Assembly: GCA_963706025.1 (NCBI GenBank)
Contig: CAVPLM010000005.1
Span: 1 to 64,000, forward strand
Reading direction: 5' to 3'
Source of the DNA: an uncultured Actinomycetes bacterium
GTDB taxonomy: Bacteria; Actinomycetota; Thermoleophilia; RBG-16-64-13
Length of the DNA: 64,000 bases
Shown here: piece after piece, positions 4,757 to 50,716 of the stretch
How positions within the stretch are numbered: position 1 is the stretch's first letter
Layout: every line of letters starts with the position of its first letter
The notes under the pieces: generated by a model
What the model was told of the DNA's origin: nothing
The model's input: only the letters and a program-made list of their open reading frames with translations
The model's database searches: none
Translations under genes and position numbers: made by a program

Positions 4757-4933
4757 TGATGGACGCGCTCAACTCGCCCCGAGCATCGGCCGTATGCTCC
4801 CGGGTTCAGGGTCGCCTTTCTGCCCTTCAGGCTGTGTCCGGTCATCTTCACGTTGTCGGCCGTTCTGATAGCCCTGGGGGCCTGGCTCTGACCAGCGCGA
4901 GGCCGGCGCTAAGGCAGGGTTCAGGGCAAGGGC

Positions 4934-5332
4934 TCAAGGCAGGGTTGCGAAGCCTTCCTGGCGGAAGTGCTCGTCGGTGGCGATGGCGGCCTCTATTCTC
5001 AGTCGCCGCATCATCACGAAGCTCAGGCAATCGGTGAGAGTGTACGTCTTGTGTGGGCGCTCGAGGAAGAGCGCCCAGGCCCGCAGCTCCTCGGTCGCGT
5101 CGGGGTGCTCCACCCTCACCTCCGCCGCCGAACGGATGTGCGAACCTGCTCTGGCCGCCGTCTCGTGGTCGCTTCGGGTCAGAAGCAGGGCGACAAGCTC
5201 GTCGAGCACATAGGTGCTGGTCACGAAGACTGCATCTGGCTGCCGCATGAGCCGCACTATCTCCTTGTGCTTGGGGGAACCCGCGAACAGGAGGTCGTAC
5301 CAGCCGGAAGTATCGACGAACAGAGGCCTCAT
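4934..5332 (-). CDS. vapC: VapC PIN-domain toxin
   Basis: FVDTS, VLDE, TDCLSF and ATDEHF acidic PIN motifs. Confidence 0.92.
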   Translation of the reverse strand: MRPLFVDTSGWYDLLFAGSPKHKEIVRLMRQPDAVFVTSTYVLDELVALLLTRSDHETAARAGSHIRSAAEVRVEHPDATEELRAWALFLERPHKTYTLTDCLSFVMMRRLRIEAAIATDEHFRQEGFATLP

Positions 5333-5601
5333 GGGCGATCGGTACTCGTGCCGTCGGCAGACGTACCCGGTCGGTGGCCGTAGAGGACGGCGTCGTGATC
5401 CTTGCCGCTGAAATCACTCTCGCCGATAAGGCCGGCAGCATCCCAGATGTGGGGCGCATCCGCGGCTGCGCGCTGCATGCGTTCCCGAACGAGGCCTCTC
5501 ACCACCGAGGACAGGCTGGACCCGCTCTCAGCGGCCCGGGCTTTGAGGAATCGATACTCCTCTTCTTCCAGCGTCACTTGTGTTCGGGTCATGCGTGCCA
5601 T
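5329..5601 (-). CDS. Ribbon-helix-helix (CopG-like) antitoxin
   Basis: MTRTQVTL...SLSSVVR RHH pattern, DHDAVLYG tail, 4-nt overlap with vapC. Confidence 0.8.
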   Translation of the reverse strand: MARMTRTQVTLEEEEYRFLKARAAESGSSLSSVVRGLVRERMQRAAADAPHIWDAAGLIGESDFSGKDHDAVLYGHRPGTSADGTSTDRP

Positions 5602-5657
5602 TGTTCTCTCCTCGCGGGACTGCGCCATAGGACCTTCGTCCGAGATATGCAGCTTGA

Positions 5658-5679
5658 TGACATATTACATCACATGTCA
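5658..5679. promoter_or_regulatory. Palindromic operator candidate upstream of the vapBC pair
   Basis: TGACAT-N10-ATGTCA, overlapping a minus-strand TAATAT -10-like hexamer. Confidence 0.45.
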
Positions 5680-5909
5680 CCATATCTTGAGGTGGTGCGG
5701 TTGGGTGGTTTCCGCCGCCCTGAATGGCGCGAGTTCGCCTGCGGCTGGAACCAAGTGTGTGGGCCGTCTTGACGCCATCATCGATCGAAGGTTGGATTGC
5801 TCACCGTCGGCTACTCCGCGTAGGCTTTCCTGCGAGAGTCCCAGGGGCGAACACGACCCGGGGCGTCTGCGCCATTTGAAAAACGTTATCACAGAAGGTA
5901 ACATTAGTC

Positions 5910-6104
5910 ATGCCCAAGGTCCGGCGAGGCGGATATGTCTTCCTTGTCTGGAAGGGTGATCATTCGCCCCGGCACGTGCATGTCTAGCGGGGTGGGCTCT
6001 TCGTCCTGAAGTGGGACCTTGACGGCCACAAGCCGATGGCCGGCAGGCCATCGCGGAGGGTAGTGAAGTTGATTCGCCAACTGGAGTCTGAGGGTCTGCT
6101 GTGA
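5910..6104 (+). pseudogene. DUF4160-like toxin with in-frame TAG at codon 26
   Basis: MPKVRRGGYVFLVWKGDHSPRHVHV*RGGLFVLKWDL...EGLL; H-x-P-x-H-V-H motif; stop overlaps the next GTG; absent from the ORF track. Confidence 0.7.
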
Positions 6105-6601
6105 AGATCAGGTCGGTCGGATACAACAACCACAGGCACGCGTTCGCAGTCACAACGCCTCGCGGGGAGTTCAGCTTCCCCTACTCGAAGGCCGCGCCGA
6201 TTCCCAGCGCAGCCGATCCGATCGCTGATATCGGGATCGATGCCGAGCTTGGGGGAGAGGGGTTCACCTACCGCTTGGTCTCTGGTTTGGAGGGCTCGGT
6301 GCACATCGAGCAGGTCCTTGAGTACAATCGGGACCCCGGCTACATGCGCGACCTTCTTCTCTACAGACTGACTCTAGAGGCTATCAAGCGCGTCGAGGAC
6401 AGCCCCCTTTCCAAGCGCGAGATCATCCGGAGGCTTGGCACGTCTCCGACCCAGTTCTATCGGCTCCTCGATCCCACCAACTACCGCAAGTCGGTCGACA
6501 AGGTGCTTGTGCTCCTTCATGTGCTGGAATGTGAGGTCGATCTGCTAGTGGCCGCCAAGGGTTCGCGTTCACGGTGTCCCCGTGGATCTGAATGCTCTTG
6601 A
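6101..6601 (+). CDS. Antitoxin-like protein with C-terminal XRE HTH
   Basis: LSKREIIRRLGTSPTQFYRLLD HTH; translationally coupled to the DUF4160-like gene. Confidence 0.7.
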   Translation: MKIRSVGYNNHRHAFAVTTPRGEFSFPYSKAAPIPSAADPIADIGIDAELGGEGFTYRLVSGLEGSVHIEQVLEYNRDPGYMRDLLLYRLTLEAIKRVEDSPLSKREIIRRLGTSPTQFYRLLDPTNYRKSVDKVLVLLHVLECEVDLLVAAKGSRSRCPRGSECS

Positions 6602-6819
6602 TCGTTGGTATCTTCACTGTTTACTTCTTTGGAGGCCCCGGTTGCCCTCACCGCGGGTACGGGCGCGATCGGATGCTGTGGCGGTGACGGCGATACGGGA
6701 TTTGGCGCCGCGCGATGGGGCTGGAATAATGGGTGACCGGAACGGTTCGCTGGGGCCTCGTCGTCGGCCAGGACCCTGACACCAGATAAGAGACTAGGAC
6801 TAGAGCGGAAGGACGGCGC

Positions 6820-39158: not shown

Positions 39159-39441
39159 CCGGACGGCGGGCGGACCAGGCCGGACCCACTTCGCCTTGCG
39201 GGTCGTCTCGAAGGCATAGGCGTAGCCGACGTAGTCTCTACACGGCCGCAGTGCGTACGTGGACCTCCTGGTGCGTCCGCAAGCAAGATGGCCCCCGGTT
39301 CGGCCGCCGGCGCAGAGGTAGGCAGTGGTCGCGATTTCGAATACGTCCGTGACTTCTCCTGTCGCCTGCATCGCTGATGGCAGGTGGCCCTGGCCTGCGA
39401 GGCAGCCATTCTTGTGCGTCGATCGACCGCATCCGGTGCGG

Positions 39442-39861
39442 CTAGAGTGCGCGCATCCGGTTGTTTTTAGGGTTGTGTTCGACCTCGGCGAGACCGAGCG
39501 CCTCCAGAAGCGGGGGCATGTACATCCCGAACCGGCCGCGCAGACCCTTCTTGAGCCCGTACCAGCCACCGACGGGGTTGTCTGCAGAGCGGCCCCACGC
39601 CTCGACGGTTCCCTCAGCGGCAGGCTTCTGCTCATCAGCGCTCCCGAGAGGTACCCAGTCGCCGCGCTCCTTGAGCATCGCGTGGAGATCCTCGATGGCG
39701 CGCAACCGATAGCTGAGCACCGTCTTGCCGACGACGCACACCAGGGCGGGCGGGTCGGCGGTCTCGTCGCGGTACATCTGATATTCCGACGACCCGCTCG
39801 GTGTCTTGAGAACCCAGGGATCCTCACGACTGCCGGAGCCGCTCAAACTCGTTGCCCCCAT
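39442..39861 (-). CDS. Conserved hypothetical protein (DUF6855-like)
   Basis: DPW.LKTP, NPVGGWYGLKKG.RGRFG and AEVEHNPKNNRMRA; GGAGG RBS. Confidence 0.75.
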   Translation of the reverse strand: MGATSLSGSGSREDPWVLKTPSGSSEYQMYRDETADPPALVCVVGKTVLSYRLRAIEDLHAMLKERGDWVPLGSADEQKPAAEGTVEAWGRSADNPVGGWYGLKKGLRGRFGMYMPPLLEALGLAEVEHNPKNNRMRAL

Positions 39862-39933
39862 ATCTCGACCTCCACCGGTAGGGCGCATTGACACTCCGCG
39901 AATCTGCCGCCTCTATACCCGCCGGAGCGTCTC

Positions 39934-39955
39934 GCCTAACGCGAGAATCAGCGAC
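39934..39955 (-). other. attC right-half remnant
   Basis: Minus strand CGCTGATTCTCGC-GTTAGGC upstream of the DUF6855-like gene. Confidence 0.45.
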
Positions 39956-40159
39956 GGTTGTAGGACGGGGCCCGTCCGCTCCGCGGCACGATCACGGCAG
40001 CACTCTCTTCTCTCGGGGCGCGTTCTGCATAGCCACGATCCTGCGCCAAGTGGTGTCGTCGCCGGACAGAACAAGGCCGTAGTGCTCTCGAACATCGACC
40101 GCGACGGCGCGTAGGGCGGCATTCGCGGTGCCGGAACGGCGTGCCCCCGAAGGCTCCAC

Positions 40160-40900
40160 CTACGGACTCGGAGGAAGGTGGAATAGTTGGGTCACTAGCG
40201 GGCCATAGATCAGCCCCCAGAACAAGCGGATTACCAGGGCCAAGACGAAGCCGATAAGCCAGAAGAAGGGTATCGAGTGCCGTTGAGTACGAAGGGGCTC
40301 TTTCCATAGCCGTTCCTCATCGATGAATAGTAAGGGAAGGGCAATGAAGCTGGCATAAGCAATCGTATAGTATGCGACTACCAAGGGAGAAAGCCAGAAC
40401 AGGGGCGAGAGGAGCACGGAGGTCAGCACCCCGGTGAAGATGAGACCTTCGGTAAGGCTCTTCCCGCCGGCAAAGAAGAACACCTCCCGAAACGAGGCCT
40501 GGGTCTTCCTGATGACGAAGTACGAGACGAGGGCAATCGGAATGTAGTCGCCTTGTGCCAGGATGAAGGAAGGCAGGGTCTCAGCGTGTAGACCGCCGAT
40601 ACCTTCCCCAGTGACCGTCAGACTGACTTCGAACAGCATACCGAAGAGCCAAACAAGGAAGACGTACGCAAGCGGCGCGAGGCTCCTCGGGATGGGTATC
40701 TTCTTCCTGAGATCGTATTTCGCGTTCGCCCACATCCCTGCGAGCATCAAACCGTACAGAGCAATCTCCGAAAACCAGTAGGGCGACCTGGGCTCGGGAG
40801 TACCGCCGATGTTCAGAGCCGCGAAGAGTATGCCGGCAGCCATCCAGATCCATACGTTCCATATGCCGCGTCCGTAGAGCTGTGATGATCTCGATCCCAT
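40160..40900 (-). CDS. Hypothetical multi-pass membrane protein (cassette gene)
   Basis: Many hydrophobic segments; starts about 55 nt after an attC R' site. Confidence 0.7.
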   Translation of the reverse strand: MGSRSSQLYGRGIWNVWIWMAAGILFAALNIGGTPEPRSPYWFSEIALYGLMLAGMWANAKYDLRKKIPIPRSLAPLAYVFLVWLFGMLFEVSLTVTGEGIGGLHAETLPSFILAQGDYIPIALVSYFVIRKTQASFREVFFFAGGKSLTEGLIFTGVLTSVLLSPLFWLSPLVVAYYTIAYASFIALPLLFIDEERLWKEPLRTQRHSIPFFWLIGFVLALVIRLFWGLIYGPLVTQLFHLPPSP

Positions 40901-40954
40901 GGGGAGTCTCCCGAGGCGGCCTCAGGTGGCTTCGCCTGTTACGACGCCTGCGCC

Positions 40955-41018
40955 GCCCAACGAATCAGCTCAGCGGCGCGGCGCTGTCTGCCGCGTTCGC
41001 CGGAGCGCTGAGCTGGGC
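40955..41018 (-). other. attC site (R'' mutated to GCCCAGC)
   Basis: Minus strand GCCCAGCTCAGCGCTCCGGCGAACGCGGC...CGCGCCGCTGAGCTGATTCGTTGGGC, 64-bp imperfect palindrome. Confidence 0.75.
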
Positions 41019-41452
41019 CCCTTCGCGTTGGTATCTGGGAGGCGGCGGAGACCACGCATCGAATGCCTTCGCAGCTGCCGAAGAGGCAACAGATCGCGGG
41101 ACAGGTGAAGAGCGCCGTCGTCCAGGTATCGCACCATACAGACCGCCGTGGATGGACAGAGGGAGCGGAACTCGGCTGTACCTCGCACTCCGGTCGGTAC
41201 GCTCTCGCGCAAACAGACCGAGTATCCTCGGTGCCCGAAGAACTCTTTCGCTGTATCGTTTCCGAGCAATTCAACCCCGGCCGTCCCAACAAGCGCGTGC
41301 CCATCCCGGGCCAGCAGAAAATGCTCGATGTGTTCGCCAACGTCTTCATCGGGGAGACCATTTGCCGACAAGAGTTCTCGTACCATCGGGAGTTCATCTC
41401 GGCCGGCCATGGAGAAGGTGATTCCGTCCGATGGTGTTGATGTCTCGATCAT
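40970..41452 (-). pseudogene. ArsN2-like GNAT acetyltransferase with internal deletion
   Basis: LL.ANGLP.ED and EFRSLCPSTAVCM present, but the acetyl-CoA-binding LRS.AV..RG.G segment is missing. Confidence 0.7.
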
Positions 41453-41469
41453 GTGATCTCCAGCGTCAT

Positions 41470-41513
41470 TCGCGGCCCGGCAGGGACATCGCGCCTGCAG
41501 CGAATCCTTATGC
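41470..41513 (-). other. attC left-half remnant at the PhzF stop
   Basis: Minus strand GCATAAG-GATTCGCTGCAGGCGCGA overlapping the stop codon. Confidence 0.45.
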
Positions 41514-42293
41514 TTCGAACGTGATTTCGGCTTCCATGAAAGTGCAGGCCTGACCGTACAATAGAACCCGATCCCCTCTCAATTCGCATTGGATAGAACC
41601 ACCTCGCTTAGAAACCTGCAGAGCACTGAGCATAGATCGATTGAGACGCCCTGCCCAATACGGCGCGAGCTGGCAATGTGCGGCTCCGGTCACTGGGTCT
41701 TCATCAACTCCGAGTTTCGGGGCGAAGAAGCGGCTCACAAAGTCGACACTATTCCCTGGCGCGGTGATGATGACTCCGCGCAAATCAAGTTGCCGAAGCA
41801 AGGACATCTCAGGCGTGATGTTTCGCACGACTTCTTCGCTCGAGAACACGAGCAGATAATCGTCTGCGGCGAGCGTTTCCACGGGCGTAGCCCCAAAGGC
41901 CCTCAGTAGCGCCGGCGGTGGATCACAAGGCACCGGCCTGCGTCCGGGGAAGTCCATCTCAAGGTCCGAGCCGGAGCGTCTGACCGAGAGCACTCCGCTC
42001 CTGGTGAAGAACGAAATGCTGTCGGCTGTGTGGTTCAGGTGAGAGAAGAGGACATGTGCAGAGGCAAGGGTTGCATGCCCACAGAGGTCGACCTCCGAGA
42101 CCGGAGTGAACCACCGTAGTTCATACCCCTCGGCAACAGGCACGAAGAAAGCCGTTTCTGACAGATTGTTCTCTTCGGCAATAGCCTGAAGTAAGGAATC
42201 CGACAGCCACGCGGCCAAGGGAACCACGGCGGCGGGGTTTCCCGCGAAAGCACGCGAGGAGAATGCATCAATCTGATACTGCTTCAGTTTCAT
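41508..42293 (-). CDS. PhzF-family isomerase (cassette gene)
   Basis: DAF...GNPA, LSETAF, EVDLCGHATL and EDPVTG motifs. Confidence 0.93.
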   Translation of the reverse strand: MKLKQYQIDAFSSRAFAGNPAAVVPLAAWLSDSLLQAIAEENNLSETAFFVPVAEGYELRWFTPVSEVDLCGHATLASAHVLFSHLNHTADSISFFTRSGVLSVRRSGSDLEMDFPGRRPVPCDPPPALLRAFGATPVETLAADDYLLVFSSEEVVRNITPEMSLLRQLDLRGVIITAPGNSVDFVSRFFAPKLGVDEDPVTGAAHCQLAPYWAGRLNRSMLSALQVSKRGGSIQCELRGDRVLLYGQACTFMEAEITFEA

Positions 42294-42312
42294 GGAACAC
42301 CGGCGACTTGAG

Positions 42313-42340
42313 ATCTAACGTTGGGAACGCGGGCGGCGAA
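42313..42340 (-). other. attC right-half remnant
   Basis: Minus strand GCCGCCCGCGTTCCCAAC-GTTAGAT, 19 nt before the PhzF ATG. Confidence 0.55.
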
Positions 42341-42354
42341 GCCATCTTCGAAGA

Positions 42355-42430
42355 TCACAATCTTGTCGGGATTGACCTTCATCTCACCGAGCGAGACGAC
42401 GTCTTCCGAGAACTCCACTCGACGCGGCAT
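42355..42430 (-). pseudogene. Phd/YefM antitoxin N-terminal fragment
   Basis: MPRRVEFSEDVVSLGEMKVNP with GGAGG RBS, then breaks off. Confidence 0.45.
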
Positions 42431-42525
42431 GGCAGCCTCCAAGCAGCACGTGAGAACTGGTGCCGGTTGTATCACCTGATGACTCTGGGAGCAACACCTC
42501 TGACAATCATTCTGCGGCACACTCA

Positions 42526-42650
42526 CTAGAGAAACCGTTCCACCACGATTTCGTCGATGTCCCGGTCCGCGACCCTGAGGTGGCGCTCGGCGACGCCCTG
42601 GCGGCGATACGCGGCGGCCACGTAGGTGCCGAGGATGCCGACGTGGTCGA
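42526..42650 (-). pseudogene. GNAT acetyltransferase fragment
   Basis: DHVGILGTYVAAAYRRQGVA (motif A) spliced to the C-terminal IDEIVVERFL. Confidence 0.55.
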
Positions 42651-42664
42651 CGCTCTTGTTCGGC
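42643..42664 (-). other. attC left-half remnant after the VOC gene
   Basis: Minus strand GCCGAAC-AAGAGCGTCGACCAC, nearly identical to the left arm of attC 43307-43384. Confidence 0.65.
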
Positions 42665-42667
42665 TGA

Positions 42668-43066
42668 TCATTCCTTGTAGTACTGCTTGAACTCCTCTGC
42701 GGGTTCCCGGTCTGAATAGATGTAGAGCATGACTCCGTTCGGGTCGAGAATGGCGAATCCGCGATCACCCCACGGATGATCTGCAAGCAGCATGACAGGT
42801 GTAAGGCCGCTGGCAGTCATACGGTCGCACTCGGCATCTACGTCTTCCACACAGAAGTTGTACATCAGGCCTGCCGGATTGAACGCCGGAGGGCCTTGCT
42901 CCTGCGGGGCTATAAACTGCAGTTCTGATGTCTCCTTTCCGAATCGGAGGTTCACGTACCACCCGCAATCGAACGTGACCTTGGCTCCGAAATACTTCAC
43001 GTAGAAATCGCACGACTCCTCCACCTTCGCCGTCGTGATGCATGCAGACAGTGTGTGTGCGATCAT
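42668..43066 (-). CDS. VOC/glyoxalase family protein (cassette gene)
   Basis: DFY...FG, F.VEDVDA and PWGDRGFAILDPNG motifs. Confidence 0.92.
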   Translation of the reverse strand: MIAHTLSACITTAKVEESCDFYVKYFGAKVTFDCGWYVNLRFGKETSELQFIAPQEQGPPAFNPAGLMYNFCVEDVDAECDRMTASGLTPVMLLADHPWGDRGFAILDPNGVMLYIYSDREPAEEFKQYYKE

Positions 43067-43296
43067 CAGTCCTTCTCCTCTTCCAGTTTGTGCAATTGCC
43101 TGATGTGTGAACCTGCATGTATCTTCTCCAAGTCGTCCAAAAAATGAGTATTGATGTGACGCACTGTGTGCCCTTCGCCTTCAAGGACCTGGTGCTGATC
43201 ATCCAGTTCCGCTCTCGATCCCCTTTGAAGTAGCAGAGTGCATTCCACTTCACGTCGCCCCATCATGCACTCAATTACTTCTGGATTAGGCCCCAT
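43066..43296 (-). CDS. Small hypothetical protein or remnant
   Basis: AGGAG RBS right after attC R'; stop overlaps the VOC ATG. Confidence 0.45.
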   Translation of the reverse strand: MGPNPEVIECMMGRREVECTLLLQRGSRAELDDQHQVLEGEGHTVRHINTHFLDDLEKIHAGSHIRQLHKLEEEKD

Positions 43297-43306
43297 TGTC
43301 TCTCCT

Positions 43307-43384
43307 GCCTAACGTCGAGCTTGATCCTCATTTAATCCGGCATCCACGCCGGACGAAACGTAGTGGTCAACGCTCTTTTTATGC
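43307..43384 (-). other. attC site (R'' GCATAAA contains the DUF3795 stop)
   Basis: GAGC[G]TTGA pairs with TCAAGCTC leaving an extrahelical base; internal TCCGGC/GCCGGA stem; ends GTTAGGC. Confidence 0.75.
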
Positions 43385-43777
43385 ATTTCTTGACACCCCG
43401 CAATTCAGACACGTGGGTCTGTGTACACAAATCAGTTCTCCACAAGCTGTACATTGCCAGCGGGCGTTTTCATTCCTGACGAACTGTCTGATTCCCACTT
43501 CCTCTATCTGCATCAGGTTCTCAATCATACTCATGCCGTATTTATCTCGATATCTCTTATCAAGGTTCTTTAATCGTGAACAGGGAAAGGAATCGCAGGA
43601 ATGATCGCAGTATTTCCATTTGCGCTTGTCACAGAATCTCAAAGTACACTTCCTGCTGCATTGAGTGTTGGGGGTGAGGCAGCCATCGCATTTGTTTCTA
43701 TCACGAACAAATCCTATGCAAAGGCGGCAGTTCATTCCGCAAGGAGCTATGTCGGATACCTTGGTGCGTGTTGTCAT
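43379..43777 (-). CDS. Cys-rich DUF3795-like protein (AT-rich cassette gene)
   Basis: IAPCGMNC..C, C..FPC, SMIENL..I and C..CG motifs; flanked by attC sites. Confidence 0.85.
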   Translation of the reverse strand: MTTRTKVSDIAPCGMNCRLCIGFVRDRNKCDGCLTPNTQCSRKCTLRFCDKRKWKYCDHSCDSFPCSRLKNLDKRYRDKYGMSMIENLMQIEEVGIRQFVRNENARWQCTACGELICVHRPTCLNCGVSRNA

Positions 43778-43800
43778 TGAGTGTAGTACCTAAGTTCTGT

Positions 43801-43864
43801 GCCTAACGTTCAAGGTGAGGAGGGCGCCGCTTTCGGCGCGTCCCTCTCGATCGAAATGTTAGAA
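43801..43864 (-). other. Intact-looking attC site
   Basis: Minus strand TTCTAAC-ATTTCGATCGAGAGGGACGCGCCGAAAGCGGCGCCCTCCTCACCTTGAAC-GTTAGGC: RYYYAAC-like and GTTRRRY cores, 64 bp. Confidence 0.88.
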
Positions 43865-43892
43865 GGCAAATTGCCGAGCAGGGACCATTTGC

Positions 43893-44078
43893 CTCGTGAC
43901 CACGCAGACGCTCTACCACCTCGGTCGTGACTGGTATGGGACGCGGATGGACCTCGATTGGCAACCGGCGACCGAGACCGAAGCGACAGACATGTTCGCG
44001 AAGCACGGGCTGGTCGGGGATTTTTGGTCGCTGGTTTAGGAGGTGCCACCGAGCACTTCGAGCGAACGCGCAGACGGT
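43893..44078 (+). repeat. 186-bp inverted repeat, left copy (duplicated merB-like 3' end)
   Basis: Reverse complement of 46693-46878. Confidence 0.95.
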
Positions 44079-44158
44079 CGTCCCTCTGGAAGGCATCCTC
44101 GCGCAACTATCCGTGTCCGTCGGTAGTATCATGGGCAGTACTCTAGGAGGTACCATAG

Positions 44159-44340
44159 ATGAGCAGATTCCCCGCTATCGTCCCCATCTCGGACTTGCGT
44201 CAGGATGCGGCGGGCGTCATCAAGCGGGCGGCGCTCTCAGGGGAGCTGGTGTTCATCACCCAGCGGGGGCGACCGGCTGCCGTCATAGTGGACGCCCAGA
44301 CCTATGAGCGCACGCAACGCCAGTACGAGCCGATTCGTGG
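44159..44340 (+). pseudogene. Truncated Phd/YefM antitoxin, paralog of 47937-48212
   Basis: IVPISDLRQDA..VFITQRGR; shares upstream AGGAGGTACCAT; no toxin follows. Confidence 0.7.
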
Positions 44341-44363
44341 TATGGCCGGCCAAGGGTGGGCTA

Positions 44364-44520
44364 CAAGCGAACTCCGGGAATGCAGTGTTCGAGTCCGGGC
44401 TTGGCGCCTTCGAGCTGACACGACTCATCGAAGAAGAGCTCGAGCGGGCGTTTGGCGAGAAGATCCCTTCGCTGGTCAAGACGTCGACTGAGATGATCGA
44501 GATCGCGGAGACGGTCAAGA
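44364..44520 (+). pseudogene. DUF1697-like fragment
   Basis: NSGNAVFES..LIEEELERAFGEKIPSLVKT. Confidence 0.5.
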
Positions 44521-44678
44521 GAACCGCCGGCTCAAGCTACATCTCGCCGCCCACCTGTCCAAGTGATCGGGTCCAATCCGGTCGTGAACCGACTCTAGAG
44601 CTCCACTCGATACACTACTGCGGATACGCTTAGCGTATCCTTTGTTACACTTGAAAGGCTGCGACGCGTCGACGGGAG

Positions 44679-45134
44679 GTGCGCATGGAACGTGACCCCG
44701 GAACCGAACTGAGTATCACACAGGCGCAGTTCCGCTTCGCCAAGGCGCTCGCCGAGATCCTCGTCTACATCGTCGTGCTCAACCTGTTCGCTGAGTTCGT
44801 GCACGCCGTAGTCATTGAGTCGTTCTCGGTCTCGCTCGTGACGGCGGTACTTCTGTGGCTGATGCTCCGTGCAACCGTGCGCCTTGAGCGCCGAATCGCA
44901 GACTACTTCCGCGAAAGGAAAGGGGTCGTGCCGCGCGTCCTGCGGTACCTGTGCGCCTGGGCGATCCTCTTCGTTAGCAAGTTCGTGATCCTCGAGGTGG
45001 TCGTATTGGTCACCGCCGGACGCGCGGCGCTCGGCCACTTCTTCGAGATCGTCGCCATCGTCGTGGCGTTGCTGGCGGCGGAGGCTGCGCTGGCCTGGGT
45101 CTACAAGAGGCTCGGCAACCGTCCGAGCGGATGA
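44679..45134 (+). CDS. Hypothetical four-TM membrane protein
   Basis: GGAGG RBS; hydrophobic segments; LFVSKFVILE. Confidence 0.7.
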   Translation: MRMERDPGTELSITQAQFRFAKALAEILVYIVVLNLFAEFVHAVVIESFSVSLVTAVLLWLMLRATVRLERRIADYFRERKGVVPRVLRYLCAWAILFVSKFVILEVVVLVTAGRAALGHFFEIVAIVVALLAAEAALAWVYKRLGNRPSG

Positions 45135-45278
45135 TCCTGAAGTTCTGGGTCCGCTGTCATCGACCGGCAAAGGTCGTTGTGTCAGTGGTCAGTCTGGTCC
45201 GATACGGGTGGTCAGTCCGTGGCCCAGGGCGGCCACTATACCTTGCATATTCACCACATCGTGCGTAAAATGCTCGCC

Positions 45279-46538
45279 ATGAAGCAGGACTTCCTTGCCC
45301 GTCATGCGACCGAAACCGTGCTGCAACGTCTTCAAGTCTTCCGCGTCGTGGTCGTCACCGGGGCGCGCCAGGTGGGCAAGTCGACGCTTGCGCGGCTGGT
45401 GGTCGAGCAGCTCGGTGGGTCGTACCTCACACTCGACGACCCGCTGACGCTGTCCCAGGCCGCGGGAGATGCCGATGGTCTGGTGGCTTCGACTACCGGC
45501 CTGACGGTGATCGACGAGGTCCAGCGGGTTCCCGACGTGCTGCGGGCGGTCAAGCTCTCGGTCGACCGCGACCCGACGCCCGGCCGCTTTCTGCTCACAG
45601 GCTCGGCGAACCTGCTGGGCATGCGGGCGGTCACGGAGTCGCTGGCGGGCCGGGCGGTGTACCTCGACCTGCTCCCTCTCTCGTGGTCGGAGTCGGTGGG
45701 CGGGACGCGACCCCACACTATCGACCAGGCGTTCTCCGCCCAATCGGCCGATGAGTTCGCCGCATCGTTGCCGGCCGCCGGTCCCGGCGCGGGTGAGGAC
45801 GCGCGCCGGCGGGCGCTGTGCGGCGGGATGCCGGAGGCCTTTCGCCTTGACGCGGACAGCCGTCGCGCCTGGTACGACAGCTACCGGCGCACCTTCCTCG
45901 AACGCGATCTGCGACAGCTCTCGGACATCAGCCGCGTACCGGAGTTCGGTCGCGTCCTGAGTCTCGCTCTGCTCCGGAGCGGGGGGCTGCTCAACAAGAG
46001 CGATATCGCCGCCGACGCTCAGGTGTCGCACTCCACGGTCGATCGGTACCTCAACCTCCTCCAGGTGGCCTACCAGATCTGGCTGCTACAGCCGTTCTTC
46101 CCCAACGTCACCAAACGACTGGTGAAGGCGCCGAAGCTGTACGCGATCGACAGCGGCGCGGCCGCTTGGGCCGCGAATGCGTTCGACTGGCGCGCAGCCG
46201 TGGCGTCGGCCAAAGATGGCGCGCTTATGGAGACCTTCGCGCTTTCGGACGTCATGGCGTGGGACGGGCTCTCGGGCGCGTCTCGATATCATTTCTGGCG
46301 GACGGGAGCCGGCGCTGAGGTCGACCTGGTGATCGAGCGTGGTGAAGCTGTCGTGGCGATAGAGGTCAAGAGCGCGGTGACTCTTACACGCCACGACGCC
46401 AGTGGTCTGCGTGCGCTCCGCGCCGACCTGGGTGGTCGCTTCCGGCTCGGCATCATCGCGTACCTCGGTCAGGACGTCCGGGTGGTCGATCAGACGATCG
46501 TGGCCGTGCCGCTGGCCTCGCTGCTTGGGGCGACCTGA
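45279..46538 (+). CDS. AAA ATPase with DUF4143 and PD-(D/E)xK-like C-terminus
   Basis: GARQVGKST, IDEVQ, LTGS, ESLAGR, K.PKLY..DSG and EVD..EVK motifs. Confidence 0.92.
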   Translation: MKQDFLARHATETVLQRLQVFRVVVVTGARQVGKSTLARLVVEQLGGSYLTLDDPLTLSQAAGDADGLVASTTGLTVIDEVQRVPDVLRAVKLSVDRDPTPGRFLLTGSANLLGMRAVTESLAGRAVYLDLLPLSWSESVGGTRPHTIDQAFSAQSADEFAASLPAAGPGAGEDARRRALCGGMPEAFRLDADSRRAWYDSYRRTFLERDLRQLSDISRVPEFGRVLSLALLRSGGLLNKSDIAADAQVSHSTVDRYLNLLQVAYQIWLLQPFFPNVTKRLVKAPKLYAIDSGAAAWAANAFDWRAAVASAKDGALMETFALSDVMAWDGLSGASRYHFWRTGAGAEVDLVIERGEAVVAIEVKSAVTLTRHDASGLRALRADLGGRFRLGIIAYLGQDVRVVDQTIVAVPLASLLGAT

Positions 46539-46554
46539 GGGCGAGTTCAGGCGA

Positions 46555-46703
46555 AGAGCTCCGCCGCCGAGCTCGCCGGCGATGTTTCCGTCGACCCAGC
46601 TGCCCGGACCGATGAGGAACACGCTCGCTGGCTCCTCGCCGAGATGCTCGAGTGGCACTGGCGCGAGCAGAAGGTGGTCTTCTGGGAGTACTACCGTCTG
46701 CGC
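46555..46703 (+). pseudogene. Internal fragment of TM0106-family nuclease/helicase
   Basis: DPAARTDEEHARWLLAEMLEWHWREQKVVFWEYYRL. Confidence 0.6.
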
Positions 46704-46878
46704 GTTCGCTCGAAGTGCTCGGTGGCACCTCCTAAACCAGCGACCAAAAATCCCCGACCAGCCCGTGCTTCGCGAACATGTCTGTCGCTTCGGTCTCGGT
46801 CGCCGGTTGCCAATCGAGGTCCATCCGCGTCCCATACCAGTCACGACCGAGGTGGTAGAGCGTCTGCGTGGTCACGAG
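46693..46878 (-). repeat. 186-bp inverted repeat, right copy
   Basis: Reverse complement of 43893-44078. Confidence 0.95.
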
Positions 46879-47391
46879 CGCACCGAGGCTCAGTCCTTCT
46901 GCATCCAGCCACGAGAACACGTCTGCTTCCGACCGGAACGCCGTCATGTTCGCTCAAGTGAAGACGATGTCGTCCCAGAACTGCTTCGCGGGAACGAGGA
47001 AGTGCACGATGGCGTCGCCTTCGGCCACCCCATCGCGCACCGTAAGCGTGATCGGCTCGCCGGTCGCCGGTGAATGCGTGTGGAGCGTGCCGTCGCCAAG
47101 AATCGCGAGGATCGACAGACCGTCCCACACGCAGTTGGCGAACCACGTTCGCTCGCCGATGGTGACAAGGAAATCCGAGTCGATACCCGAGAACGGATGC
47201 GCCATTCTCACGCGATCGGTGCCAGGAACTAGCACGAGGCGATGCTCGTCTGCCAATGAGTGAAGCGCCGCCGAGGCGTGGGACTCCGCCACACCGAGCA
47301 TGTCGCCGATGGCGGCGGCCGTCGGTGCCTGTCCGGTGTCGCGAAGCGTCTGGATCACGGTCGCCCGCACCTGCCGCTCGAACGAGTCCAT
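46732..47391 (-). CDS. MerB-like organomercurial lyase, putative selenoprotein (in-frame TGA at 46954-46956)
   Basis: HTH N-terminus, MAHPFS, NCVWD, then WDDIVFT-[TGA]-ANMTAFRSE in one frame (219 aa); SECIS-like hairpin follows. Confidence 0.8.
46915..46951 (-). promoter_or_regulatory. Candidate bacterial SECIS element
   Basis: GAACATG/CGTGTTC lower stem, TTCC/GGAA upper stem, GGTC apical loop starting 20 nt after UGA. Confidence 0.6.
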
Positions 47392-47548
47392 ATGGTCTGC
47401 TCCTCCGAATCGGTCGACGGCAATGGTGCTAACAATACTTCGACAGTCTGCCGGAATCCGCCTTGAAATGACCCAAAAGCGTTTTCGTCGCGACTCCTCA
47501 GCCGCCTTTCCAGGGCTCGGGAGCGTCGAGACGCGCCCGGTGTGTGAT

Positions 47549-47637
47549 GCAGTTGAGCAGCAAGCTGCAGCCCGCTGCGAGTGGATCAGAGCGTAACGCG
47601 GAGGCCGTGGTTTGTCTGCTCGAACTGCTTGTTAGGC
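47549..47637 (-). other. attC-like site lacking R'
   Basis: Minus strand GCCTAAC (contains toxin stop), GCAGTT[C]GAGCAG pairs with CTGCTCAACTGC; no GTT core afterwards. Confidence 0.7.
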
Positions 47638-47940
47638 GTCGCCGGCTTCGGCTGGCTCATCAGGAATCTGCGCCCCATGCCATGCCGCCACGACCCAGAC
47701 TGTGTTGCCCTTGACACGGTAGAAGAAGCGGTACGGGTCGACAATGACTTCGCGGAACTGGAGATCAGGGAACTCGCGAACCACGCGACCCGACTCGGGG
47801 AATTCCGCGAGCCGGGCAAGTACGGTATTCACTCTCTGCTGGAATGCCCGGGCTGCGGACGGTCTGTCTGCGCGGACATAGGCGAGAGCCGCCAGGAACT
47901 GGATCCGGGCCGGCGGCGTGAACTGGACCCTCAGGGTCAC
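47632..47940 (-). CDS. RelE/ParE-family toxin
   Basis: LAEFPESGR..REV..PYRFFY..WHG motifs. Confidence 0.9.
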   Translation of the reverse strand: MTLRVQFTPPARIQFLAALAYVRADRPSAARAFQQRVNTVLARLAEFPESGRVVREFPDLQFREVIVDPYRFFYRVKGNTVWVVAAWHGAQIPDEPAEAGDA

Positions 47941-48212
47941 GACTCGCCCAGAAGCGCCTCGGCCTCCGCCATCACGGTCTCCAGGTCGTAGCCCACGCCG
48001 GCCTCGATGTCGGCCTCACCGCGCGCGAGCAGGCGCAGGATCTCGAAGTTGTGCTGGCTGCGCTCGTAGGCGCCCGCGCTGACCAGGACCGCAACAGCAC
48101 GCCCGCGCTGCGTGATGAACACCGGTTCACCGGAAGCAGATGCCCGCTTCAGGATGGCCGAAGCATCCTGACGCAGCTCGCTGATTGGGACGATGTTGGG
48201 GACTGTACTCAT
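47937..48212 (-). CDS. Phd/YefM antitoxin
   Basis: PISELRQ..PVFITQRGRAVAVL; 4-nt overlap with the toxin. Confidence 0.9.
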   Translation of the reverse strand: MSTVPNIVPISELRQDASAILKRASASGEPVFITQRGRAVAVLVSAGAYERSQHNFEILRLLARGEADIEAGVGYDLETVMAEAEALLGES

Positions 48213-48254
48213 CAATGGTACCTCCTTCACTAGCGTTCATTGTACCACTGATGA

Positions 48255-48580
48255 ACCTACGCAGCGCTGCAGGCTCGTTGAGCATCTCCTGAAACCGCAA
48301 CCGGAGTTCCTCGAACGTTCTCTCGAGCGGATCGGCCGCCGGGACTGCCCGCGGAGCACGAACAACAGCGAAAAGGCCGTACCCGTGGTGCCCTCCGAAG
48401 GTGCCGAGGAGCCGTGCGAATCCACTGGGCATGAAGCTCAAGGTGCTGGAGATGGGGCGAGAGGTGGCGAGCGGCTAGCGTGTCGAGCGTCCGCTTGAAG
48501 GCAGGACATCGGCTTCGTGGATCGCAAGACCTCCGATGACGAAGTGGTCATCGGGATTGCTCGGCTCGAACGCCATGGCC
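48255..48580 (-). pseudogene. DUF3800-like remnant (frameshifted and deleted)
   Basis: HFVIGGLAIHE, LELHAQWIR and DPLERTFEEL..RF found in different frames. Confidence 0.5.
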
Positions 48581-48748
48581 CACGAAGTCGACAACGTTCT
48601 CTCCTTGCGTGTCTGGTTCTCGGTTCAGTCTACCGGCGCGTCGAAGGCCCAACCATAGGTCGTTAGTTGCAGGTGGACGATTGGCACTTCTCAGGGCTGC
48701 GCGCTTCGAATCGAGGCCCGAAAGGTGCGGTTGCCGTCCTTGACACTC

Positions 48749-49845
48749 TCACCCGGCCTGGATCTCCTCCGCCATCTCCAGAAACCGGCAGAACGCATTG
48801 GCCAGCTGCATCTGGCGGGGCGTGCGGCAATCGACCTCGAAGAGACGCGGGCTTGCCACCAGGATGCAGGTCGCCCGCGCCCGCGAGGTGGCCACGTTCA
48901 GGCGGTTGAGGCTGTAGAGGAACTCCATGCCCCGGGGGGCCAGTTCGGGCGAGGAAGTCGCCAGCGAGAAGACGACCACCGGCGCTTCCTGCCCCTGGAA
49001 CCTGTCCACGGTGCCGACACGATGGCCCGGAAGACGAGTGGTCACATCGGCCACCTGGGCGTTGTAGGGGCAGACGATGAGCACCTGCTGGGCGTCCAGC
49101 GCACTCTCCTCGCCCTGGGCGTCGACCCAGAGCACGCCGTCCGTCAGCGATTCCACCGGCCGGCCGACGGCCTCCACCTCTTCGGGGGAGGAGTTCTGGT
49201 TGCCCTCGTGCTCCACAGGCAGGAACCAGAGCCCCGCGCCTGCAAGGGGCGTCGGCCCCCGCAGAGCCTGGTTCTCGAAACCCGGTCTCGACTCCAGCCG
49301 GCCCTCGCAGAAGAGCTCGGAGGTGAAGAGACAGATATCGGGATGCAGACGCCAGGTCTCGTCGAGAAAGAGTCCGCGATCGTCGGCGATGGTCTGACGG
49401 CCCTGAAGCAGGTGCTCGAGGGCCGACACTTCCGTGCCCTCGGGATGGCTGCCTTGTTGTGGTTGCTCCAGCTGCTGAGGGTCGCCGAGGAGGACGATGC
49501 TCTGTGCCGCCTGAGCGACCGCAATGACGTTCGCGAGCGACATCTGCCCGGCTTCGTCCACGAAGAGCACGTCCACGGCATCGCGGAAGTCAGGACGCGC
49601 CCACACCCAGGCAGTGCCGGCCGCCACCTGAGCCTGGCCAACGGCGACGCACTCGAGAAGGACGGCGTTGTCGGTCAGCTCGAGTATCTCCCGGTAGGTG
49701 TCCTCCGGATCGCCTTTGACCTTCTGGGCGCAGCACAGTTCGACTCCTTCGTCCGCCAGCCGGGCGATAGCGTTGATGTCATCGACGGTGCCGAACTTGC
49801 CTTCCACCCAATGAAGATCGGCCTCGTCGCGAAGCTCAGAATCCT
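48749..49845 (-). pseudogene. C-terminal SF1 helicase part of a TM0106-family protein
   Basis: GTAW, FVDEAGQ, GDPQQL, TWRLHP, PYNAQV, GTVDRFQGQE and RLNVATSRA motifs; Walker A and N-terminus missing. Confidence 0.8.
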
Positions 49846-49859
49846 GGGGTGGGTAGCTG

Positions 49860-49937
49860 TAGCGGCAGAGCGGCGAGGACGAGCCTGGCGCGCATGCTCG
49901 GACAACGCGCGAAGTCGGCTGCACGCGCTTGTTCGAA
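49860..49937 (-). other. attC left-half remnant after the ParE toxin
   Basis: Minus strand TTCGAAC-AAGCGCGTGCAGCCGAC, 12 nt after the stop. Confidence 0.5.
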
Positions 49938-49949
49938 CTACACTCGCGA

Positions 49950-50246
49950 TTATCGGCGGCCACGCCAGTAGTAGGGTCGCTTCCGCTGATGCGCCACGGC
50001 CAGAATCCTAAGGGAGTTTTCACGAGTCTCGTAGATGAGGCTGTACGGGAACTTGGCGAGCACGAGCTTGCGAACGTCGTTAGTGACTTGCAGGGCAGCT
50101 CCGGGGTACTGCCGGATGCGCGCGAATCCGGTATCAACCTCATCTGTGAAGATCAATCCAAGACCAGGGCTCTCGCGCTCGTAGTAGTCGACGGCGTCAT
50201 TGAACTCACGACGAGCGTCAGGGTGAACCTGCAGCACCCGCGTCAC
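49950..50246 (-). CDS. RelE/ParE-family toxin
   Basis: HPDARRE..DYYE, FPYSLIY and ILAVAH.RKRP.YW motifs. Confidence 0.9.
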   Translation of the reverse strand: MTRVLQVHPDARREFNDAVDYYERESPGLGLIFTDEVDTGFARIRQYPGAALQVTNDVRKLVLAKFPYSLIYETRENSLRILAVAHQRKRPYYWRGRR

Positions 50247-50467
50247 TTGAGGCGAGCCCTAGCCTCAGCGATGACCTGATCCGCTGGAATGGTCTCAACG
50301 AGGCCGGCATCGATCTCCGCGCTGCGGCGTAGCACCTCTTCGACCCACAACTGCTCGACCTCAGCCTCCGAGAGGGACTCAAGGCTGCTCAGGAGTTCGT
50401 GAGCCATGGAAGCACGATCCCTGGCACTGAGCATGAGGGCTTCGCGCATCAGTTCGTCAACGGTCAT
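50243..50467 (-). CDS. Addiction module antitoxin (TIGR02574-like)
   Basis: ALMLS..DRA..A..LL.SL, W.EEV.RR and G.VETIP patterns. Confidence 0.88.
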
Positions 50468-50716
50468 ATCACACCTCGCAAACGCCGGAATGCTCTCGCC
50501 GATATTGTACCTCGCGCATCTGACGCCGAACCCCTACCGAGTGTTGGTGCGAACAACCATTATCCGGTCTGCCGAACCCCACCGATGCAGCGCCTGGGTG
50601 TCTTCGTGGCGCCGGCTCCAGCTTCCCCCGGAAAGGGGCGGAAAGCGCTGGGAACCGCACGACGCTATGTCCCGCCCCGACCGTCGTTCGACAATAAACA
50701 GACTGTATATGCAGCC

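Follow-up and report, generated by a model that had tools for sequence, protein, structure and literature searches.

A predicted selenoprotein with the MerB fold, distinct from SaoL, in an uncultured Actinomycetes bacterium

MerB and MerB2 (EC 4.99.1.2; PDB 3F0O, 3F0P, and 5C17) are organomercurial lyases, with Cys96, Asp99, and Cys159 as the catalytic residues of MerB, and a MerB-like organometallic lyase selenoprotein, SaoL (NCBIfam NF040728), has been described by Haft and Gwadz (bioRxiv 10.1101/2022.07.06.499078). In the part of that preprint consulted, SaoL is characterized by a C-U motif and by a nine-gene SAO locus (ABC transporter, SaoC, SaoT, and others) found in anaerobes, its carriers being anaerobic Firmicutes, spirochetes, and deltaproteobacteria. 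A preliminary description of the DNA studied here, a 64,000-nucleotide stretch of contig CAVPLM010000005.1 from an uncultured Actinomycetes bacterium (at its full length referred to as the window), had pointed to a MerB-like gene with a UGA at the second catalytic cysteine and had remarked that MerB-like selenoproteins had been proposed before; SaoL is the protein to which this remark applies. No other MerB-like selenoprotein was found in print in the literature searched, supplements aside, and the family of the window gene is absent, by term, from the parts consulted of two selenoproteome reviews (PMC9312934 and PMC13188914).

We conclude, with a probability of roughly 0.88, that the region at 46732..47391 on the minus strand constitutes a single, intact gene whose product is a selenoprotein of 219 residues with the organomercurial lyase (MerB) fold, UGA codon 146 being decoded as selenocysteine. 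Judged from sequence comparison, by which selenium incorporation itself is predicted, the locus is almost certainly a genuine selenoprotein gene. How the protein is employed by the cell is a separate matter, for which the claims made below are more guarded.

A conserved UGA at the second catalytic position of a MerB fold

The gene and its three presumptive catalytic codons are located as follows, A1 being an alignment of 30 sequences.

46732..47391, minus strand: coding sequence of the predicted MerB-like selenoprotein, 219 codons; ATG at 47391..47389, TAG at 46734..46732
46954..46956, minus strand: UGA codon 146, predicted to be read as selenocysteine; equivalent of MerB Cys159; TGA throughout the column in 110 loci
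47131..47133, minus strand: Cys87 codon TGC; equivalent of MerB Cys96; invariant in A1
47122..47124, minus strand: Asp90 codon GAC; equivalent of MerB Asp99; invariant in A1

As had been proposed, the minus-strand open reading frames (ORFs) at 46954..47391 (145 amino acids) and 46732..46947 (71 amino acids) lie in the same frame with only the spacer TGA-GCG-AAC between them; the TGA at codon 146 (46956..46954) is the sole interruption of the frame from 47391 to 46732, and the read-through product (...FANCVWDG...FWDDIVFT-U-ANMTAFRSE...FWSLV) has 219 amino acids. Residues 67-187 of this product, a segment that includes the TGA codon, are recognized by the Pfam MerB model (PF03243) with an E-value of 4.6e-22; the score is 78.8 bits, and the cut-off is 27. 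AlphaFold2, supplied with 30 homologs, gave a model with a mean pLDDT of 94.3 and a pTM of 0.90, and in a Foldseek comparison with the PDB the 11 best matches are all MerB2 or MerB chains (E-values down to 1.7e-9), with TM-scores of 0.68/0.71 to MerB2 (5C17) over 199 aligned columns. Because the model and the Foldseek alignments span them, the 73 residues 3' of the TGA belong to the fold. MerB2 is also the top sequence match among solved structures (5C17, E = 2.1e-7), followed by MerB. The TGA column aligns with Cys159 of MerB and the matching cysteine of MerB2, and C87-x-x-D90 aligns with Cys96-x-x-Asp99 of MerB. Residues invariant in A1 include C87, W89, D90, H130, P134, W139, I142, and U146 up to the UGA and R153, S154, E155, W185, R189, F215, and W216 after it. 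At residues 108-111, most relatives at 35-45% identity in A1 have C-P-D-C or C-A-C-C and the window's subclade has S-P-A-T; this subclade has thus lost a second cysteine pair.

The UGA is shared by every full-length locus of the family that was checked. Among 60 relatives, 4 genomes have a homolog (36-89% identity), each with one in-frame TGA. The 401 genomes of the class hold 31 full-length places in 30 genomes (E ≤ 3.6e-36), with exactly one TGA in 31 of 31, always in the same column of the translations and in the context WWDDI[VGA][FYH][TNS]-U-[AS]x[MI]; one unpublished class genome, G343, is included in the counts and excluded from the alignments. When one genome of each species was scanned with sequence patterns, at least 588 relatives were recovered, counted among the 600 stretches listed; the best 80 loci were checked, and all 80 have TGA at the column; the patterns left out the UGA column but took in the preceding WDDI.FT motif, and they may favor the UGA clade. 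These 80 loci belong to Actinomycetota (Acidimicrobiia, Gaiellaceae, and Thermoleophilia) and to other phyla, including Acidobacteriota (Thermoanaerobaculia and Vicinamibacterales), Gemmatimonadota, Chloroflexota, Marinimicrobia, Dormibacterota, and others. Altogether, TGA was found in 110 of 110 homologous loci from independent assemblies of several phyla, at 35-90% identity, and the conservation of the protein continues past the UGA to the C-terminus. A further locus, L036 (G390:C29:8902-9306), is a truncated relic that has the N-terminal 138 residues only, lacks the TGA, and diverges past VPAK.

The provenance of the sequence does leave room for the suspicion that the TGA arose through faulty sequencing or assembly, or by recent nonsense mutation, so that the gene would be a pseudogene or would truly have TGC or TGT. 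The source is a metagenome-assembled genome (MAG) with an estimated contamination of 7.3%, although selD lies on the window's own contig; no sequencing run containing this organism was found (best share of words 0.13), so that no read set of the organism covers the site; four sequencing runs yielded nothing but short contigs from relatives; and the gene has a truncated partial copy nearby. These points tell against our conclusion as far as the source of the sequence is concerned. A 282-nt contig of a relative spans the TGA, with no difference there among the differences listed. The 110 loci, however, were assembled independently, the 73 codons 3' of the TGA are conserved as protein, invariant residues included, and the structural model requires the C-terminal part. 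Error or pseudogene is ruled out because the UGA column and the residues downstream of it are conserved; on this comparative evidence, the suspicion is in practice refuted.

Homologs with cysteine in place of the UGA provide a second line of evidence. When 1.84 billion cluster representatives were searched with a profile, without an index, 4578 matched at E ≤ 1e-3, 2024 at 1e-10, and 381 at 1e-30, and 146 of the 150 matches listed were examined, with the following residues at the UGA column.

No residue: 76 representatives
Cys: 61 representatives
Trp: 2 representatives
Other: 7 representatives

Among these listed matches, 75 of the 76 representatives without a residue end directly before the UGA column, and all 76 of these truncated, UGA-type sequences keep Cys and Asp at the other two catalytic columns; of the 61 Cys forms, C-x-x-C is found in 27 and C-x-x-D in 25. 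The matches listed for a sample of 401 genomes from the phylum comprise 30 with one TGA and 12 that are full-length without a stop, a tally that takes in six unpublished genomes, and all 12 no-stop homologs, which are more distant relatives, have TGC or TGT at the UGA column. The Cys/TGA pairs for which the preliminary description had proposed to look are thus present both in the protein representatives and in the genomes. On a FastTree phylogeny of the N-terminal 145 residues (171 rows, with rows of fewer than 110 filled columns dropped and 6 other-residue rows unlabeled), the selenocysteine (Sec)/Cys label changes 11 times, against a shuffled mean of 48.6 (0 of 500 shuffles as low), and well-supported branches force only 1 Sec-Cys change.

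Most database entries for the family stop short of this column. In a word-indexed protein database, 118 of the best 120 matches cover the pre-TGA part only, 108 of them being exactly 145 amino acids long, and a search with the C-terminal region gave a single match, P0122, a Cys form; to recover the Cys forms, the index-free profile search was required. RefSeq WP_230997545.1, from the cultured Geomonas sp. RF6, is likewise a 145-residue "alkylmercury lyase family protein". It is clear from these results that a large T-U clade, with UGA in every locus examined and separate from SaoL, is systematically mis-annotated. The same gene calls could be taken at face value, with the UGA acting as a terminator and the two halves being separate proteins, or with the 145-residue N-terminal product functioning alone, and the window does have an ATG three codons past the TGA. 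At that codon, however, just 65 of 108 distinct homologs have ATG, while 36 have ATC and 7 have ATT; a start past the TGA is therefore not conserved. The Cys homologs are single full-length proteins, a 145-residue product would miss an active-site residue, and the covarying hairpin and fixed CGG-UCG codons described below would have no role. We therefore regard a split or shortened gene as very improbable.

Tryptophan stands at the column in two database entries (P0002 and P0009, the only full-length ones among the best 120; P0126 and P0134 among the representatives), which might suggest that the UGA encodes a different amino acid (Trp or Gly, under codes 4 or 25) or is decoded by near-cognate read-through. 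These entries are apparently gene calls made under code 4. The adjacent ATPase ORF (45177..46538) stops at TGA, the carriers span many phyla and have the machinery for selenocysteine, the homologs have Cys rather than Trp or Gly at the catalytic column, and a SelB-type hairpin is conserved, all of which makes a decoding other than selenocysteine scarcely credible.

The genome itself (3.66 Mb in 30 contigs, 92% complete) encodes all four components of the selenocysteine pathway for which the preliminary description had suggested a search, each scoring above its curated cut-off.

selD (itself with a UGA): 388 bits; on the window's contig, ~700 kb off
selA: 506 bits; contig 3
selB: 304 bits; contig 3
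tRNA-Sec: 79 bits; contig 3

The selD gene (L001, G000:C5:742679-743602, minus strand) has the selenoprotein motif SHGSG-U-ACK, and downstream of its UGA come a spacer of 13 nt and a 7-bp stem capped by a GGAC loop, the same plan as that of the MerB-like gene. Across the class, 266 of 401 genomes have selA, and among the 30 carriers of the UGA form the count is 29; as related genomes are not independent, these are plain counts. The one carrier without selA is a 76%-complete MAG.

The hairpin downstream of the UGA

SelB recognizes the G and U of a small apical loop that lies some 11 nt past the UGA in E. coli fdhF, and a GGUC-type loop with this spacing of about 11 nt characterizes the selenocysteine insertion sequence (SECIS) elements of E. 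coli fdhF and Moorella. The corresponding elements of the window gene, numbered from the U of UGA as position 1, are these.

46915..46951, minus strand: SECIS-type hairpin in the mRNA; it is seen in RNA fold predictions, and the family-wide 7-bp upper stem covaries
46951..46945 with 46921..46915, minus strand: lower stem, positions 6-12/36-42
46941..46935 with 46930..46925, minus strand: upper stem, positions 16-17 and 19-22 against 27-32, with G18 (46939) bulged
46931..46934, minus strand: apical loop GGUC, positions 23-26; the last 2 nt of the Arg153 codon CGG and the first 2 nt of the Ser154 codon UCG

The preliminary description had seen a hairpin, with a G-initiated GGUC loop, that was said to begin 20 nt after the UGA. 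The hairpin and its loop are present, but it is the loop, not the hairpin, that begins 19-20 nt past the UGA. Across the family, the stem has 7 bp, at positions 16-22/27-33 around GGUC, and starts 12 nt past the UGA. Its conservation was assessed in 110 segments (108 of them distinct, forming alignment A2), each of which takes in 9 nt upstream and 63 nt downstream of the TGA, with the following results.

Standard-pair cells, A2 (108 rows): observed 94.4%, shuffled 84.0%, 0 of 500 shuffles
Cells changed on both sides, A2: observed 74, shuffled 27, 0 of 500 shuffles
Covariation score, A2: observed 0.331, shuffled 0.154, 0 of 500 shuffles

As a control, sliding the 3' partners by 1-3 columns lowered pairing to 46-64%. 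The outer three pairs correspond to codons 5 and 10 past the UGA, where the covariation leaves a trace at the protein level, L..E versus A..G; the codon pairs are CUC/GAG (42 cases), GCC/GGC (13), UUC/GAG (9), and GCC/GGU (6), with single cases of GGG/CCC, GGC/GCC, UGU/GCA, GCG/CGC, and CUU/AAG. The loop and inner stem overlie the codons for F/L-R-S-E. CGG encodes the Arg in 106 of 108 segments, the other 2 having AGG; UCG encodes the Ser in 106 of 108; and the Glu codon is divided between GAA (72) and GAG (36). A2 columns G32 and G33 are invariant, and T34 and C35 are at least 90% conserved. That two amino acids with six codons each have fixed codons in G+C-rich genomes strongly suggests that selection acts on the RNA. 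The Cys forms serve as a further control, as the FRSE motif is absent from the 12 no-stop homologs; two Cys forms, related to one another, have F-R-S-D and use CGC for Arg.

Several observations weigh against this interpretation. The retention of FRSD in two Cys forms means that the conservation of FRSE could be partly a matter of the protein. The window hairpin on its own is no more stable than shuffled sequences (z = -0.98; 33 of 200 shuffles fold as well), and its three outer upper-stem pairs fail in the family register, the bulged G18 being needed to form the stem, which is followed by an internal loop and then the 7-bp lower stem. An Rfam scan of 46600-47500 at E ≤ 10 gave two chance matches to microRNA models and no SECIS family. 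Since the single-sequence fold is non-significant, the case for the hairpin rests on the comparative data. From these data, the SECIS-like hairpin of the preliminary description is predicted to be a genuine SECIS-type element, conserved and covarying in the relatives.

Proposed function and genomic setting

Given the evidence presented here, UGA146 would be translated as selenocysteine by way of SelA, SelB, tRNA-Sec, and SelD, with decoding steered by the hairpin within the coding sequence, whose stem lies 12 nt past the UGA and whose GGUC loop falls on the Arg-Ser codons of the invariant F/L-R-S-E motif. The selenol would then occupy the place of MerB Cys159, beside Cys87 and Asp90. The enzyme would act by MerB-type protonolysis of a carbon-metal bond, the metal being held between thiolate and selenolate and Asp being the proton donor, with the selenolate serving as metal ligand and nucleophile instead of the Cys159 thiolate. 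The replacement of the Cys159 equivalent by selenocysteine, as the preliminary description had envisaged it, agrees with the alignment, the conserved UGA, the Cys pairs, the hairpin, and the genes for selenocysteine synthesis. An enzymatic role is probable, and MerB-type protonolysis of a carbon-metal bond is the most likely activity, as far as the fold and active-site residues allow us to infer.

The substrate is less secure, and several findings tell against an organomercurial lyase. No MerA scores above the cut-off in the 92%-complete genome (best 371 versus 454 bits). The curated MerB equivalogs NF009710 and NF033555 score 23.1 bits against a cut-off of 193 and 20.2 bits against 200, respectively. 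An all-against-all comparison of ORFs within 5 kb of 109 loci revealed no family-wide neighbor. In addition, no second MerB-family gene was found in the genome, and no mer genes were found among the 17 window ORFs scanned, merR, merT, and merP not having been searched genome-wide; the earlier statement that there is no mer operon is borne out by the neighbors, which comprise toxin-antitoxin genes together with an ATPase gene and part of a helicase gene. As there is no MerA above the cut-off, the canonical hand-over of Hg(II) to MerA would be unavailable. The enzyme may retain the product or pass it to thiols; alternatively, its natural substrate may be another organometal or organometalloid. 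Organomercurials are the default guess for the substrate, a guess made less secure by the lack of MerA, and organomercurial lyase activity is an extrapolation because of the missing MerA and mer genes, the absence of a shared neighbor, and the low equivalog scores.

It is accordingly a serious possibility, to which we would give somewhat less than even odds, that the protein, while a genuine selenoprotein, has a function other than that of an organomercurial lyase, and that it acts on another organometal or organometalloid or binds or handles metal or selenium through its Cys-Asp-Sec site. Besides the lack of MerA and mer genes and the scores far below the MerB equivalog cut-offs, the housekeeping context of some members would suit such a function, as the gene is chromosomal and lies between purH and a gene for a pyridoxal phosphate (PLP) enzyme with a CBS domain in 11-15 of 109 loci, all in Actinomycetota. 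A similar argument has been made for SaoL, in the part of the preprint consulted (Haft and Gwadz, bioRxiv 10.1101/2022.07.06.499078). The full MerB triad geometry is nevertheless kept, the proton-donor Asp included, and the Cys and Asp are found in all 76 truncated representatives among the matches listed and are invariant in A1. Retention of both residues favors bond protonolysis over mere binding. A cluster of neighbors from 31 loci was considered and rejected as a conserved neighbor, as it consisted mostly of alternative-frame ORFs overlapping the gene, linked to the PLP and CBS neighbor (~11 loci).

A more specific and rather speculative proposal, which we consider unlikely on present sequence evidence, is that the T-U clade is a selenium-dependent demethylase of methylmercury or other organometals that is common in mer-less soil and sediment bacteria and would explain some of the mer-independent degradation of methylmercury, with Hg(II) retained by or set free from the Cys-Sec pair instead of going on to MerA. 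If it were true that the enzyme acts on methylmercury, it would be relevant to mercury cycling in soils and sediments, and merB surveys would have missed the clade, since the gene is called as a 145-residue fragment without the active-site residue.

The window gene lies within an island of ~11 kb (~39.4-50.5 kb) that separates the genes for an M23 peptidase and MurJ from that for LepA, and G+C content dips to 0.51-0.59 at 40-44 kb. The genes of the island are small and unrelated to one another, and they encode DUF6855, PhzF-like, and glyoxalase proteins, Phd/ParE and Unstab_antitox/ParE pairs, an AAA_14/DUF4143 ATPase, and a fragment of an SF1 helicase. There are three toxin-antitoxin pairs in the island (~39400-50500), and one ORF (44159-44491, plus strand, 110 amino acids) has a Phd/YefM antitoxin domain on residues 7-54 only, with a remainder that looks unrelated; it is possibly a frameshifted or fused gene. 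The genome contains one copy of the MerB-like gene plus one partial copy. Two further features of the island concern the gene itself.

43893..44099, plus strand: inverted partial second copy of the 3' end of the gene, comprising the last 49 codons and ~60 nt of 3' flank
47427..47433, minus strand: GTTAGCA, similar to the core site of integrons; DNA similarity to the orthologs L062 and L063 (blastn) reaches no further 5' than its G

The partial copy has 98% protein identity to residues 171-219 and forms a 207-nt inverted repeat with the gene (43893-44099 versus 46672-46878, 96% complementary). A Phd-like ORF, a membrane ORF, and the AAA_14/DUF4143 ATPase lie between the arms. The repeat could have been left behind by an inversion or by a former second copy.

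The preliminary description had placed the gene in an integron-like array, which is supported only in part, and weakly. The integron core-site consensus is GTTRRRY, and the GTTAGCA at the similarity limit resembles it; the closest orthologs (78-91% identity) resemble the window DNA only across the gene and ~40 nt on either side; relatives have pairs of the form GCTAAC...GTTAGGC or GTTATGC after the stop; and the ortholog at L062 (P0006) stands directly behind a truncated integron-integrase-like ORF. On the other side, no tyrosine recombinase (PF00589) was found in the window, the nearest being at C5:240145, and the window flanks fold as DNA no better than shuffled sequences (z = 0.39 and -0.21) in generic folding rather than under an attC model. 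There are hints, then, of a cassette-like mobile unit in the window's subclade. At L062 itself (~4900-6657; P0006, 87-91% identity), a single gene call joins ~190 integron-integrase-like residues (PF13495, PF02899, and PF00589) to the MerB-like N-terminal 145 residues on the same strand.

Comparison with known systems

A family of thousands of proteins is stored almost wholly as 145-residue fragments that lack a catalytic residue and the final third of the protein. Selenocysteine in the place of the Cys159-type ligand would not be peculiar to the anaerobe-specific SAO system, as it would also occur in a widespread, stand-alone clade beside Cys sister forms, and this natural Sec/Cys series could be used to probe the role of selenium in the cleavage of carbon-metal bonds. 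The hairpin in the coding sequence also appears to fix the F-R-S-E motif, a clear case of an RNA signal constraining an amino acid sequence. Like bacterial SECIS elements of the E. coli fdhF type, it is located within the coding sequence at a fixed short distance 3' of the UGA and has G and U in its loop; it differs in that the window hairpin matches no Rfam model and in that binding by SelB is here a prediction.

Other MerB-like genes with in-frame UGA codons were observed alongside the T-U clade. A distant one, L057 (G078:C3:401969-402544), has UGAs at the equivalents of both Cys96 (WFAQ-U-AFE) and Cys159, with a hairpin after each of the two, and both of its catalytic cysteines may be selenocysteine; two further MerB-like matches with two TGAs, in G414 and G459, are listed. 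Two loci of another MerB-like clade, L058 (G395:C91:13322-13828) and L059 (G359:C36:51395-51898), have a UGA at the same column as the window gene, in the context AAFN-U-SRMNLFRSEEH and a 415-residue open frame, and in G359 this gene is 3 kb from the T-U gene.

The Cys-containing members of the subfamily (e.g., P0123, P0143, and P0122) are full-length and are annotated as "organomercurial lyase" or hypothetical. They have flanks nearly identical to those of the window protein (WWDDI..T-C-..M/I.LF...) and differ from it in having TGC or TGT for TGA, in many cases C-x-x-C for C-x-x-D (27 of 61 among the matches listed), and, in the 12 no-stop genomic homologs, neither the FRSE motif nor the CGG-UCG codons. 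MerB and MerB2 share with the window protein the fold over ~200 residues (TM-scores of 0.57-0.71), the Pfam family, and the catalytic Cys and Asp; the second catalytic Cys would be selenocysteine in the window protein, and sequence identity is 15-23%.

With SaoL, as it appears in the part of the preprint consulted, the window protein shares the MerB-family fold, a predicted selenocysteine at the Cys159 equivalent, the retained equivalents of Cys96 and Asp99, and the routine truncation of database entries at the UGA. The identification of the window gene as SaoL was nonetheless rejected. Neither the protein nor the genome yielded a match to NF040728 (cut-off 140 bits) at E ≤ 10. The motif is T-U in the window family (N-U or S-U in a few) versus C-U in SaoL, and ~73 residues follow the selenocysteine position in the window protein versus ~50 in SaoL. 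No SAO neighborhood was seen around the window gene, where the neighbors are toxin-antitoxin, ATPase, and helicase genes, the individual Sao hidden Markov models (HMMs) not having been run. The carriers differ as well, as the window family is found in Actinomycetota, Acidobacteriota, Gemmatimonadota, Chloroflexota, and others rather than in the anaerobes from which SaoL is described. The window gene is best described as the founder of a second selenoprotein clade in the broad Pfam MerB family, set apart from SaoL by HMM, motif, and neighbors.

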